Position numbers and translations under genes: made by a program. From contig CAVZRK010000003.1 of the NCBI GenBank assembly GCA_963777835.1, positions 43,429-107,428 on the forward strand: DNA of 64,000 nucleotides. Direction: 5' to 3'. The notes under the pieces were generated by a model. That model was given only the letters and a program-made list of their open reading frames with translations. It made no database searches and had not been told where the DNA came from. The number at the start of each line of letters is the position of its first letter. Position 1 is the stretch's first letter. This stretch comes from an uncultured Gemmatimonadales bacterium. GTDB lineage: Bacteria > Gemmatimonadota > Gemmatimonadetes > Gemmatimonadales > GWC2-71-9. This document shows, one piece after another, positions 60,621 through 64,000 of this stretch.

Positions 60621-60674
60621 GGCCCAGCCAGCATGGTATCCCTGCCCCCTGTTCCCGCATCGGAAGGCCCACAG

Positions 60675-62198
60675 ATGACACGACGGTTCCTGCTGCTGCT
60701 CGCACTCGCCGCCACGCCGCTCGCCGCCCAGACCGGGGTGGACACGGCCGGCGCCGGCGCCCTGATCGACCAGGCGATGAACAAGTCCCAGGTCATGGCC
60801 AACCTCGGGTACCTCACCGACGTGATCGGCCCGCGGCTCACCGGCTCGGCGGGAATGAAGCGGGCCAACGACTGGACCGAGGCCCAGTTCAAGTCCTACG
60901 GCCTGTCCAGCTGGCAGGAATCGTGGGAGTACGGCGTCACGTGGGAGCGCGGCGAGATCGCCTTCCGCATCGACTCACCCTTCGTCCGGAACCTGACCGC
61001 CCACAGCTGGGCCTGGACGGTGGGCACCGAGGGGAAGACGCTCACGGGGCCGGTGGTGATGGTGGACGTCTCGACGCCCGAGAGTCTTGCGGTGTACAAG
61101 GGCAAGGTGAAGGGGGCGTGGCTGATGCTCCGGCCGCCGACCAGCATCTGGAACCCGGACGGGCCGCCGATGACCGCCGCGGATTCCGCCGCCGCGCAGA
61201 AGGAGCGGGAGGCCCGCGTCGCCGCGATGCGCGCCACCCCGACCGACACGTCGGCGGCCGCGCGCCAGGCCCGGCGCCAGTTCGCCGTGGACCGCAACTA
61301 CCTGCTCAAGAACGCCGGTGCGCTCGGCGTCCTGACCGACGGCTCCAAGGAATTCGGGCTCATGACCATGAGCGGATCGGCGTACAGCATCTCGCCGCTT
61401 CCAAACGTCGTGGTGGCGCACGAGGACTACACCTTCTTCAGCCGCCTGCTCGCGCGGGGTGTGACCCCCACCGTCTCCGGCCGGATCAGCAACACGATCG
61501 GGAAGAAGCCGGTCCAGCAGTGGAACACGGTCGCCGAGATCAAGGGCACCGAGTGGCCGGACCAGGTGGTGATCCTCGGCGCCCACCTCGACAGCTGGGA
61601 CCTCGGCACCGGCACCACGGACAACGCCACCGGCTCGATGGTCGTCATGGAGGCGGCGCGCGTCATCATGCAGAGCGGCCTCAAGCCGAAGCGGACGATG
61701 CGGTTCATCCTCTTCAGCGGCGAGGAAGAGGGCCTGCTCGGGTCGGTGGCGTACGCCGCCAAGCACGCGTCGGACCTGAACAACGTCCAGGCGGTGCTCG
61801 TGCTCGACAACGGCACCGGGATGATCACGGGGCAGGCGCTGCAGGGCCGGAACCAGGATGCCCAGCTCTGGCAGGAGCTGCTCGCCCCGGTGGCGTCGCT
61901 GGGCGCCTCCAAAGTGCGCGAGGCCAACAAGGGGGGCACCGACCACCTGGCGTTCACGCCGTACGGCGTGCCGGCGTGGAACTTCGACCAGGAAACCCGC
62001 GGCTACAACCACACCCACCACTCGCAGATCGACACCTACGACCACGCGGTGCCGGGCGACCTGATGCAGGCGTCGGCGGTCATGGCGGTGACGGGCTTCG
62101 AGCTGGCCAACCTGCCGGCGCTCCTGCCGCGCGGGCCGGTCACCCCGGTGACGCCGCGGACGGTGCTGCCGCCGAGCCCGGGGCTCGCCAAGAAGTAG
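60675..62198 (+). CDS. Exported M28 family metallopeptidase
   Basis: Signal peptide, IGPRLTGS, GAHLDSW, DNATG, GEEEGLLGS, GTDH and HHSQID. Confidence 0.9.
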   Translation: MTRRFLLLLALAATPLAAQTGVDTAGAGALIDQAMNKSQVMANLGYLTDVIGPRLTGSAGMKRANDWTEAQFKSYGLSSWQESWEYGVTWERGEIAFRIDSPFVRNLTAHSWAWTVGTEGKTLTGPVVMVDVSTPESLAVYKGKVKGAWLMLRPPTSIWNPDGPPMTAADSAAAQKEREARVAAMRATPTDTSAAARQARRQFAVDRNYLLKNAGALGVLTDGSKEFGLMTMSGSAYSISPLPNVVVAHEDYTFFSRLLARGVTPTVSGRISNTIGKKPVQQWNTVAEIKGTEWPDQVVILGAHLDSWDLGTGTTDNATGSMVVMEAARVIMQSGLKPKRTMRFILFSGEEEGLLGSVAYAAKHASDLNNVQAVLVLDNGTGMITGQALQGRNQDAQLWQELLAPVASLGASKVREANKGGTDHLAFTPYGVPAWNFDQETRGYNHTHHSQIDTYDHAVPGDLMQASAVMAVTGFELANLPALLPRGPVTPVTPRTVLPPSPGLAKK

Positions 62199-62220: not shown

Positions 62221-62256
62221 AAGCGCGGTGCGGGGATCGACCCCCGCACCGCGCTT
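62221..62256. terminator. Hairpin between the convergent M28 gene and the small-ORF operon
   Basis: AAGCGCGGTGCGGGG-N6-CCCCGCACCGCGCTT. Confidence 0.7.
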
Positions 62257-62265
62257 TGCATCCAG

Positions 62266-62352
62266 CTACTTCCAGGGAGAGGGCGGAGGTGGTGGCGGGT
62301 CTTTCGTCGCCAGTTCCAGGCCGATTTCCTGGTGCGTCATCATGTGGGACAT
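62266..62352 (-). CDS. 28-aa polyproline-Trp peptide b (MSHMMTHQEIGLELATKDPPPPPPSPWK)
   Basis: Hand translation; AGGAG SD 5 nt upstream; paralogous to 62634-62720; mixed Pro codons. Confidence 0.7.
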   Translation of the reverse strand: MSHMMTHQEIGLELATKDPPPPPPSPWK

Positions 62353-62374: not shown

Positions 62375-62602
62375 TCAGTGGTGATGCCGGGTGAGTTGCC
62401 GCTCGGCTTTCTCGAGGCGGTCCGTCGTGTCCTTCAGCTTGGCCGCCATCTGGGTTCCCCACTTCTCCATTTCATGCATCCAGAGCTTCAGCGCATCGAC
62501 ATCGAGGATGTCCTCGCTGCGCGCTCTGGTGCGCCAGGGAAGCCGGCCCACCCACTTCCAGTTGCCCCGCACCTTGCTCCAGTGTCCTCGTCGGGTTGCC
62601 AT
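62375..62602 (-). CDS. 75-aa Trp-patterned coiled-coil small protein B
   Basis: AAGGAG SD; NWKW..LPW..LWMHEMEKWG; paralog of 62748-62966. Confidence 0.75.
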   Translation of the reverse strand: MATRRGHWSKVRGNWKWVGRLPWRTRARSEDILDVDALKLWMHEMEKWGTQMAAKLKDTTDRLEKAERQLTRHHH

Positions 62603-62633
62603 GAATCGCATCTCCTTGATCGAGGGGTTGAGG

Positions 62634-62720
62634 TCAGTCCCACGGCGGCGGCGGGGGCGGCGGCGGGTCCTCGGATGCAGCCGGCCGCGCCAGCGGTCCC
62701 GTCAGCGTGTTCGTCATCAT
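62634..62720 (-). CDS. 28-aa polyproline-Trp peptide a (MMTNTLTGPLARPAASEDPPPPPPPPWD)
   Basis: Hand translation; AAAGGAGG SD immediately upstream; paralogous to 62266-62352. Confidence 0.72.
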   Translation of the reverse strand: MMTNTLTGPLARPAASEDPPPPPPPPWD

Positions 62721-62747
62721 GCGCCTCCTTTCGGGCCGGCGAGGCGG

Positions 62748-62966
62748 TCACGCTCGCTCCTCGAGTTCGGACACGCGGGCCTCGAGGTCTCTGCACTTCT
62801 CGGCGACCATCCGTCCCCAGGTACTCATCTCTTTCATCCATTGTGACAATTGCGCTTCATCCCCGCGCCCCATCGTCTGTGTCGTCCAGGGTAGAGGGTC
62901 GGGGTAAGTCCACTTCCAGTCGCGTGCCCGTGGACCCTTGCTGGTGTTAGCCTTCCAGGTGCTCAT
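62748..62966 (-). CDS. 72-aa Trp-patterned coiled-coil small protein A
   Basis: GGAGG SD; DWKW..LPW..QWMKEMSTWG; paralog of 62375-62602. Confidence 0.75.
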   Translation of the reverse strand: MSTWKANTSKGPRARDWKWTYPDPLPWTTQTMGRGDEAQLSQWMKEMSTWGRMVAEKCRDLEARVSELEERA

Positions 62967-62994: not shown

Positions 62995-64000
62995 CTACTG
63001 CCTGCCAACGCTGCCGCTGCCCTGCAGGGCCTCAAGCCTTCGGCGGCTCTCTCGCGCCAGTTGCTGATCGCCGACCATGTCTGCTGCCGCGGCGCGGATG
63101 CTCAGGCTCATGGGCAGGAACACGATGTCGGCCAGGACGGCCGGTGCGTCCACGACGCTCGCGGTCTCGATGGCCTCGTAGGGCAGGCGCCGCGCGAGGT
63201 AGAGCTGCGCCAATAGAATCCGATCGGCGACGAGCGATTGCCACGGCATCGACGGTATCAGGTCCTTCGGGGCGGCCGGAGCGTTTGCGGCCAAAATGGC
63301 GATGGCTGCCGCAGTGTCGCTGCGCGCCAGGGCCAGGCGCCCTTCGAGGCTTCGTGCCAACGGCGACTCGCGACCGTGTCGCCGGACGGCGGCCCGGTGC
63401 ATGGCTTCCGTCGCCCCGACGTTGTCGAGTTCCGCGGACCATGCACCGGCAAGCCAAATCGTACCGTCGCCCACGTCGTCCGGTTGCTTCGCGAGGCGGG
63501 TCAAGGTGTTGGCCGCGAATGCCGTCGCCGCGGCTGTGTCCGGCGACCCCGCGAGGACATCCAGGGTCAGGAACAGCTGTCGGGCCACGAGCGGAAACAT
63601 GGAATCGGATTCGACGACCCTGCGCGCGCCGGTCGCGTCGCCCCGGGCCACGAGAATGCCCTGGCGCGCCACGAGGGCGCCGAATCGCAGGGGATCCGAG
63701 GGGTTTGTCTCCCCGACTGCATCTGCGGCCAGCTGGGCGCACTCCACTTGTCGGAGCCCTCCCCCCGTGAGGATCTGCACGGCGTCATACACCAGGGCCG
63801 GATCCCGGGAGGCTACAGACGTCCAGTCAACCGACGTCATGTCGCCAAGCGCACATCCCGTGGCCAAGCGGAGCCGTTCCAGTTCCCGGTCGTCGGGGCG
63901 TCCCGCGGCGAACTCGTCGAGCAGCCGGACCGCCGCGCTGTCGCTGCGTCGGAGCGCCGCCTCGACGAGGTGTGGGAGCGCGGGGGCGAAGGAGGAATCG
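62995..64000 (-). CDS. C-terminal part of a TPR-like receptor protein (paralog of the BTAD regulator at 20674); 5' end outside the window
   Basis: DSSFAPALPHLVEAALRRSD..RLRLATGCALGD aligns by eye with DSASVPALLHRIELAARQGD..FLRWRAAVALGD. Confidence 0.7.
   Translation of the reverse strand, partial: DSSFAPALPHLVEAALRRSDSAAVRLLDEFAAGRPDDRELERLRLATGCALGDMTSVDWTSVASRDPALVYDAVQILTGGGLRQVECAQLAADAVGETNPSDPLRFGALVARQGILVARGDATGARRVVESDSMFPLVARQLFLTLDVLAGSPDTAAATAFAANTLTRLAKQPDDVGDGTIWLAGAWSAELDNVGATEAMHRAAVRRHGRESPLARSLEGRLALARSDTAAAIAILAANAPAAPKDLIPSMPWQSLVADRILLAQLYLARRLPYEAIETASVVDAPAVLADIVFLPMSLSIRAAAADMVGDQQLARESRRRLEALQGSGSVGRQ

Follow-up and report, generated by a model that had tools for sequence, protein, structure and literature searches.

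We analyzed a 64,000-nucleotide (nt) stretch of DNA from an uncultured Gemmatimonadales bacterium (contig CAVZRK010000003.1, positions 43,429 to 107,428; hereafter the window), toward one end of which the gene of a membrane Ser/Thr kinase is followed by four small open reading frames (ORFs). All five genes are on the minus strand, in the order kinase, A, a, B, b (Table 1). A and B encode small proteins built around a Trp-bearing helix, while a and b encode micropeptides that end in a polyproline tail. The kinase stop codon is separated from A by 28 nt, peptide a ends 31 nt 5' of B, and a Shine-Dalgarno-like GGAG stands 5-9 nt before the start of all four small ORFs. Two starts are available for B, ATG 62611 (78 amino acids, aa; 62375-62611) and ATG 62602 (75 aa). 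We adopted the latter because its length is the one common among the seven database relatives of B, six of which are 75 aa long and one 79 aa. The original prediction, drawn from positions 62375-62966, had placed polyproline peptides beside A and B, and both peptides are indeed there, b lying just beyond that piece.

Table 1. Features of the kinase and small-gene locus and its immediate surroundings in the window.
Feature	Position	Strand	Remarks
Membrane Ser/Thr kinase gene (938 aa), 3' part (last 334 codons)	62995..64000	minus	Runs past the window end
Protein A, 72 aa	62748..62966	minus	ORF with GGAGG 6 nt before start
Peptide a, 28 aa, MMTNTLTGPLARPAASEDPPPPPPPPWD	62634..62720	minus	ATG with AGGAGG 5 nt before
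Protein B, 75 aa	62375..62602	minus	AAGGAG 9 nt before ATG 62602
Peptide b, 28 aa, MSHMMTHQEIGLELATKDPPPPPPSPWK	62266..62352	minus	ATG with AGGAG before; final gene of the unit
Perfect 13-bp G+C-rich hairpin	62223..62254	strandless	Between the stops of b and the M28 peptidase gene; read from sequence
Secreted M28 peptidase gene	60669..62198	plus	Convergent with the unit; Pfam 5.3e-36

A contains DEAQLSQWMKEMSTWGRMV and B contains DALKLWMHEMEKWGTQM. Both strings had been quoted in the original prediction as instances of W-x2-E-hydrophobic-x2-W-small, with Trp at positions i and i+7, and both were found exactly; the pattern takes the form W-x2-E-M-x2-W-G in each protein, within a common motif L-x2-W-x3-M-x2-W-G. 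A and B are paralogs, aligning with 36% identity over 56 aa (BLASTP, E 1e-7), and are the sole two copies in the genome (2.8 Mb, 82% complete). In A, a Trp-rich N-terminal part (W4, W17, W19, W27) precedes a helix (residues 37-71) that carries L40-W43-M47-W50-G51; B has a basic, Trp-rich N-terminus and the same L-x2-W-x3-M-x2-W-G helix. An AlphaFold2 (AF2) monomer model of A, with a predicted local distance difference test (pLDDT) score of 81.5, contains an N-terminal hairpin with strands at 5-7 and 18-20 and the helix at 37-71. Read in heptads, this helix has a hydrophobic seam at positions 40, 47, 54, 61 and 68 (L, M, V, L, L), and the neighboring stripe 43, 50, 57 and 64 reads W, W, K, R, residues that are invariant or nearly so among A-type sequences. 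In a 17-member alignment, W27, L40, W43 and W50 are the sole invariant columns, and M47, G51, R64 and E69 are nearly invariant. Reading of the sequences revealed no N-terminal hydrophobic signal segment in A, B, a or b. Most members carry a Ser or Thr 1-4 residues after the invariant W27 (e.g. P-W-T-T or P-W-R-T; residues 27-31 of A and those aligned with them), and it is a matter of speculation whether this could be a phospho-acceptor loop for the adjoining kinase.

Protein A has 72 aa in the window, as against 81-92 aa in relatives. Near codon 70 of A (~62756-62759), the window carries one base more than loci L012 and L019, so that A stops early, with a shortened C-terminus, at a TGA in the same frame as a. 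In relatives, A is about 10 codons longer and its stop overlaps the start of a (ATGA). The base is missing at 62759 in X4 and at 62756 in X7 (other samples; single contigs, depth 4.6-6). The extra base may be a strain variant or an assembly error; the reading of the unit is unaffected.

Searches of A, B, a and b against Pfam and NCBIfam at E up to 1 returned only noise (GvpL, 0.078, on A). Neither A nor B had a Pfam match, at E up to 1, to the known proline-recognition domains (WW, SH3, GYF, EVH1, profilin), and NCBIfam again gave noise only. A Foldseek search of the A model against the PDB gave no match at E up to 0.001, and the ESM Atlas returned unnamed clusters only, with a best score of 0.85. 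Word-indexed protein searches found 3 relatives of A and 7 of B, and an exhaustive profile search of 1.84 billion cluster representatives yielded 14 proteins at E up to 0.001, all of 73-92 aa. The family profile matched 6 of 201 genomes of the same Gemmatimonadales family. In a phylum-wide sample, 6 of 401 genomes were matched, all from that same family (5/166 there, 0/234 in eleven other families). Since these genome sets are samples, the family is not found elsewhere rather than shown to be absent. A narrow, word-based literature search found no prior description of it. By these searches, A and B with their peptides are an undescribed, narrowly distributed, kinase-linked small-protein family, present here in a split form and in two tandem copies.

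The peptides end in DPPPPPPPPWD (a) and KDPPPPPPSPWK (b). Among 14 peptides from 8 loci, peptide positions P19-P24, P26 and W27 are invariant and D18 is nearly so, and the N-terminal halves are variable. To judge from their codons, it is the protein sequence of the tail that is conserved. Over the last 12 codons of the 9 a-type tails, pairwise differences number 28, 36 and 250 at codon positions 1, 2 and 3, respectively (third position, 250/314), with 194 synonymous vs 64 non-synonymous differences. The 6 b-type tails, compared over the same length, gave 5, 9 and 75 differences (third position, 75/89), of which 72 were synonymous and 9 were not. The Pro codons of peptide b are CCG CCA CCA CCT CCG CCC, and CCG, CCA, CCC and CCT interchange freely between orthologous tails. 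The excess of third-position differences indicates that the tail is a translated and constrained sequence, not a C-rich RNA or DNA element. Helix genes and peptide genes alike are under protein-level selection.

Furthermore, six-frame translation of the whole 70%-GC genome revealed 80 runs of at least six Pro, and only in a and b does the run lead into (x)PW, a single residue and a stop codon; this uniqueness leaves chance as no explanation for the two tails. Elsewhere in the genome, two very short stop-to-stop frames end in PPPPPSPWRSS (G000:C6:62468-62521, +) and PPPPPWR (G000:C7:386011-386067, -), and these are probably due to chance, given the 70% GC content. The exact sequences of a, b and the a-type peptide of L006 had no match in a 15-billion-protein collection, which indicates that gene callers overlook these ORFs. 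GGAG lies within 20 nt 5' of 13 of the 15 peptide ORFs compared, and the remaining two have a purine-rich GGGG stretch.

The split arrangement was found at 10 loci (the window, L005, L006, L007, L012, L015, L017, L018, L019 and L025), among which L006 and L017 hardly differ and the window, L012 and L019 form a closely related group. A Pro-Trp peptide ORF of 21-29 aa follows each of the 16 helix genes at these loci, at -4 to +41 nt, and contains 6-8 consecutive Pro in 15 of the 16 cases. The exception is L025 (G276), the most distant member, with 5 Trp and a 21-aa peptide whose tail is PPSPPPGPWK, with no Pro run longer than three. At L012, L015 and L019, A and a share an ATGA in which the stop of the first gene overlaps the start of the second. 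The genes come doubled, as A-a-B-b, at six loci and as a single pair at the other four (L005, L007, L018 and L025). The tail always goes with the type of the helix gene: A-type genes are followed by P8-W-D/E (P6-R-P-W-R in L005) and B-type genes by P6-S-P-W-K/R. A helix gene and its peptide gene, according to this pairing, were duplicated as one unit with type-specific tails. That the helix proteins and the polyproline peptides go together, as the original prediction had supposed, is thus borne out by their co-occurrence in 16 of 16 cases, by joint duplication, and by homologs in which a Pro-rich tail is fused to the helix.

The full kinase ORF (L003:2995-5811) matched Pfam Pkinase (9.7e-51) and TPR_11 (6.6e-8) and encodes a Pkinase domain, one hydrophobic segment and a long TPR-containing C-terminal region. 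RTRRGLFVIGGLVAGAALVWATY follows the kinase domain, and the single hydrophobic segment is preceded by RTRR. This single segment and the Arg residues before it suggest that the TPR part lies outside the membrane. No known proline-binding domain was detectable by Pfam in the cytoplasmic part. An orthologous, same-strand Pkinase protein of ~930-946 aa, usually with TPR matches, is encoded directly 5' of the small genes at all 10 split loci. The comparison of these loci shows that kinase, helix protein and Pro-Trp peptide form a conserved, co-oriented unit with short gaps, and the cellular role of the small proteins is probably tied to the kinase.

A search with the kinase C-terminal domain matched 49 of 201 family genomes. 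We read the downstream DNA of 29 of the 30 kinase loci it yielded, leaving out the remaining one, which comes from an unpublished genome. In a manual count, the kinase is directly followed by a small ORF whose tail is Pro-rich, or by a split pair, at 22 of the 29 loci and by neither at six, with one locus ambiguous. Seven of the 22 resemble A or B with the tail attached in one chain. At these fused loci the small ORF comes directly after the kinase on the same strand, and a GGAGG-type ribosome site precedes every A/B-like fused ORF. The fused protein of L046, for example, is 71 aa long, with the helix KWMKEMAIWGKKV and the C-terminal end GDPGDPPDDPWNDE. Further fused tails are GDPGDPPPEPE, GDPGDPPPPE and GDPGEPPTNPWK, and some end in P-W. 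The 11 fused proteins searched had no convincing match in Pfam.

Profile comparison by hhalign of the A/B family with six fused relatives gave a probability of 95.7% and E 9.2e-9 across 42 columns over the Trp helix, and a hidden Markov model of the A/B family matched the G057 protein at E 7.6e-8. The heptad Trp pair (6/6) and the tail G-x-P-G-x-P-P are invariant among the six. In the A/B system the acidic Pro-rich tail (G-D-P-G-D-P-P type) is found in trans, on an ORF of its own, rather than in cis. That free tails resemble the fused ones (D-P-P, followed by P-W and a charged end) is a judgment by eye only. The split forms carry 5-7 Trp and, except for L025, runs of 6-8 Pro, compared with 2-3 Trp and runs of 2-5 Pro in fused forms. 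This homology of proteins that follow orthologous kinases identifies A+a and B+b as a split version, with a one-chain form as their ancestor or their relative.

Other small proteins next to these kinases have Pro-rich ends as well. A second family of 62-66 aa was found directly after paralogous kinases (L030:2536-2736, +; L033:1480-1677, +; L034:1504-1692, -), in which a basic N-terminus is succeeded by an invariant E-C-C, a helix bearing as many as three Trp, GGGG and TPPPPP-x-W-P. Homology of this ECC-helix-GGGG-TPPPPPKWP family to A and B could not be demonstrated, the hhalign probability being only 3.6% against A/B and 16% against the fused family. In the AF2 model of one such single-chain analog from a sister genome (helix, GGGG, TPPPPPKWPPA), the tail is coil with pLDDT 61-64 and no confident packing, and a wide structure search with this model in VIA found nothing at Z of 5 or more. 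The C-terminal ends GDPTPPPKPPKWT and GTPPPPPKFK belong to other small proteins encoded after paralogous kinases. In a same-genus genome, the ORF after a paralogous kinase (L031, ~2560-2849, +) has a lipoprotein-like start (hydrophobic stretch, Cys) and ends in PPDLKPPPKYPPS; its Pro-rich aromatic tail would sit outside the cytoplasm, where the kinase TPR region is predicted. At L062 and L064, from two other genera, the kinase stop is followed by Gly/Asp/Pro-rich repeat ORFs, with GGGRGDDPPPPPP in one and DEETPGGKGPPPD in the other.

One-chain homologs that combine the Trp helix with a Pro-rich tail support a functional, and probably physical, partnership between the two parts. As a functional relationship, the partnership of helix and tail is well supported by comparative genomics. 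We tentatively propose that a membrane Ser/Thr kinase module includes a split small protein, of which A+a and B+b are two tandem copies, each helix protein holding its cognate tail. Direct binding of the peptide tail to the helix protein, to which the comparison of split and fused sequences points, is plausible, if a little short of an even chance.

Trp rings stacked on Pro rings are a general mode by which proteins recognize a polyproline II (PPII) helix. In the proposed mechanism, the 21-29-aa peptide would be made on its own, as suggested by its own Shine-Dalgarno site and by the overlap of its start with the helix-gene stop at three loci. Its C-terminal D-P6-8-(x)-P-W tail would adopt a PPII helix and dock noncovalently on the Trp face of the helix protein, made up of W43, W50 and the extra N-terminal Trp residues. 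Docking would restore in trans the contact that the fused relatives would make in cis. Binding in trans would call for just such a larger number of Trp and longer Pro runs as the split forms have. The remainder of the helix, with its seam of L40, M47, V54, L61 and L68, would form a coiled-coil oligomer, and the stoichiometry is likely to be one tail per helix. An eight-Pro PPII helix of about 25 Å would span roughly the distance from the Trp pair to the Lys and Arg of the stripe, and these basic residues could contact the acidic ones flanking the prolines. The complex would probably work at the cytoplasmic face of the kinase, as its adaptor or regulator; this location is suggested by the lack of an N-terminal hydrophobic signal segment in the small proteins.

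Several points weigh against such a contact. AF2 leaves the tail of the single-chain analog unpacked, although that analog has no demonstrable homology to A and B. Gene fusion shows shared function, not contact, and in the fused relatives a third protein could use the tail as a flexible docking motif. W43 and W50 are next to the hydrophobic seam and may be no more than core residues, whether in a coiled coil or in the fold of the monomer. The contrast in Trp count and Pro-run length between split and fused forms goes back to essentially one evolutionary split and is therefore no independent evidence. All members come from one bacterial family, so their conservation partly reflects short divergence.

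Of the other readings, the one that survives best holds that the Pro-Trp tail, in fused and free form alike, docks on a third protein such as the kinase or another proline-recognizing partner, that the Trp pair is merely part of a coiled-coil or monomer core, and that A, B and their peptides work in the same pathway without touching each other. We consider this unlikely, while granting it real weight. The kinase is the sole gene invariably linked to the small genes, and the tail, not the A/B helix, is what unrelated kinase-adjacent small proteins have in common (the ECC family and those that end in GDPTPPPKPPKWT, GTPPPPPKFK or PPDLKPPPKYPPS); the unpacked tail in the AF2 model fits this as well. 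C-terminal peptides are known ligands of TPR-type domains, and the one in collagen prolyl hydroxylase binds polyproline. However, the TPR part of the kinase is predicted to lie outside the membrane, whereas A, B and the two peptides lack an N-terminal hydrophobic signal segment, and the cytoplasmic part of the kinase has no detectable known proline-binding domain. Furthermore, a free 28-aa peptide would lose any scaffolding role unless it were still bound to a carrier, and each of the two tail types, a and b, keeps to its own type of helix gene.

The original prediction had likened A and B to the cholinesterase WAT helix, which carries three Trp, and had proposed that the neighboring peptides nucleate their oligomerization as the PRAD peptide does. 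In 10.1101/431288, the assembly is described as a left-handed superhelix of four WAT helices with an antiparallel PPII helix at its center, stabilized by hydrophobic stacking and hydrogen bonds. The helices are the C-termini of secreted cholinesterases, and the peptide comes from ColQ, PRiMA or lamellipodin (10.1101/431288 and PMC5943944). Part of the likeness stands. A and B have an amphipathic helix with Trp seven residues apart (W43 and W50, invariant in 17/17 members) beside a continuous heptad seam, and a separate short partner with 6-8 consecutive Pro; Trp-Pro stacking round a PPII helix would be the proposed contact here as it is there (10.1101/431288 and PMC5943944). Kinship in sequence and the hydrolase context did not hold up. 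The 17-member profile, run against all PDB chain sequences of at least 20 residues, had 24 matches at E up to 10, all of them generic coiled coils (best, myosin-7, E 0.014) and none a cholinesterase.

The two systems also differ in their parts. The A/B stripe has only two heptad Trp, not three, and K57 and R64 take its next positions. A and B are stand-alone proteins of 72-92 aa with no Pfam domain and a predicted cytoplasmic location, whereas WAT is the tail of a secreted hydrolase; their partner is encoded by a dedicated, adjoining and co-translated micro-gene; and the system has no Cys for disulfide links to the peptide. The 1:1 pairing of the genes, their often translationally coupled layout (ATGA overlap at three loci) and the single tail per helix in fused relatives argue for 1:1 over 4:1, and the fused tails could not all fit one central channel. 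A true assembly of about four parallel A or B helices round one antiparallel PPII peptide, reached by convergence and nucleating oligomerization, is therefore improbable. Complex prediction for four copies of A with one peptide a gave scores of 0.01 and 0.02 (two alignments) against a mark of 0.32, values that are evidence neither way for a peptide below the 30-residue calibration limit. We regard the resemblance as meaning that A and B may work somewhat like WAT and PRAD, not that they belong with them. There is likewise only a small chance that they are a convergent bacterial counterpart in which a micropeptide supply dependent on elongation factor P (EF-P) sets the oligomeric state of a kinase adaptor; if true, this would link the capacity to translate Pro runs to kinase signaling.

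For the 1:1 contact that we favor, the packing of helix on PPII in the pancreatic-polypeptide fold or the Trp-cage may be a closer analogy. In both, an aromatic helix lies on one PPII stretch, 1:1, an arrangement that fits the fused relatives, with their helix, Gly/Pro linker and Pro tail, and the ECC-type family. In contrast, the two elements of A/B are on separate chains, and the helix is far longer and continues as a coiled-coil seam. The searches with Foldseek and VIA gave no structural match, and the AF2 model of the single-chain analog leaves the tail unpacked.

It has been reported that D-P-P, P-P-P and P-P-W are among the strongest known pause motifs, PPW and PPP being top motifs in Escherichia coli (PMC13602936). 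The polyproline ORFs could on this basis be translation-stall elements acting in cis, with DPP, PPP and PPW pauses that would tune operon expression or mRNA fate unless EF-P is active, the product itself being unimportant. The a- and b-type ORFs are very short and contain strong stall motifs, EF-P is encoded in the genome, and peptide a ends close upstream of B. However, the peptide ORF is the last of its unit in 10 of 16 cases (all b-type ORFs and those of L005, L007, L018 and L025), with nothing downstream to control, unlike a leader. We thus rejected a leader-peptide reading as the main explanation, the peptide ORF in these cases being the final gene before a convergent gene or an unrelated flank. 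In b-type tails and in G142, S-P or R-P precedes the Trp, which is hence not conserved as part of PPW, and the tail is kept as protein even in the forms S-P-W and R-P-W and also ends ordinary, longer proteins in the fused relatives. The RNA of the a-B spacer folds no better than shuffled sequences (z +1.6), and no Rfam family came near its gathering score in the a-B region. Stalling as the purpose of these ORFs is consequently improbable.

Least credible of all, and rejected as a main explanation, is that the peptides are precursors of ribosomally synthesized and post-translationally modified peptides (RiPPs), processed by the neighboring M28 peptidase: they are short and genetically encoded and have a strongly conserved segment, and the secreted peptidase is convergent downstream in the window, L005, L006, L015 and L019, but the unit and its surroundings hold no modifying or maturation enzyme family (the neighbors are the kinase, the peptidase and an unrelated regulator), the conserved C-terminal tail and variable N-terminus are the reverse of most leader-core precursors, the tail is also found fused to the helix protein, and the peptidase is not downstream in L007 and is unconfirmed in L018, where the flanking ORF is cut by the contig end. 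The adjacency of the peptidase is probably a matter of synteny rather than function.

The hairpin between b and the peptidase gene is likely a two-way transcript end; Rfam gave sub-threshold noise only for it, and a strict terminator scan that requires a T-run did not report it. The promoter and terminator scan returned 0 and 0 sites, with no promoter-like site from the kinase to b. In the RNA libraries, the sole run that touched the stretch (X20) contributed one 169-nt contig of depth 2 (62510-62634), too little to speak for transcription or its limits.

Beyond the window end, 5' of the kinase, lies a 1255-aa AfsR-like regulator (Trans_reg_C, BTAD, AAA_16, TPR; L003:6335-10102, -), with a 150-aa ORF of no family between the two. 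KbpA and AfsS are small accessory proteins around the AfsK/AfsR Hanks-type kinase system of Streptomyces. A, B and the peptides are similar to them as small proteins of unknown fold beside a Ser/Thr kinase with, in this genome, an AfsR-like regulator just upstream. They differ in that the regulator is apart from the kinase in the relatives checked, and we claim no sequence relation. Of 2 same-genus genomes, 0 contain it anywhere, and in 3 other relatives it is elsewhere or ~13 kb off. We therefore place it outside the conserved unit and rejected a link of the small genes to it, as it never adjoins the kinase in the five relatives.

The peptide genes, with 21-29 codons and six to eight Pro in a row, are invisible to gene callers, yet their tails are under protein-level selection, and the a- and b-type ORFs are a clean example of functional micro-ORFs missed by annotation. 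Split and fused forms are a natural experiment, and the two-piece system is suited to simple biophysics of binding. If A and B bind the peptides, they would be a new compact bacterial module for proline recognition, usable as a peptide/protein tag pair, and if the binding were of the wrap-around kind, it would end the monopoly of the cholinesterases on that architecture. For the Gemmatimonadales, the small proteins are an undescribed accessory component of a widespread kinase family, whose kinase was found in 49 of the 201 genomes searched.

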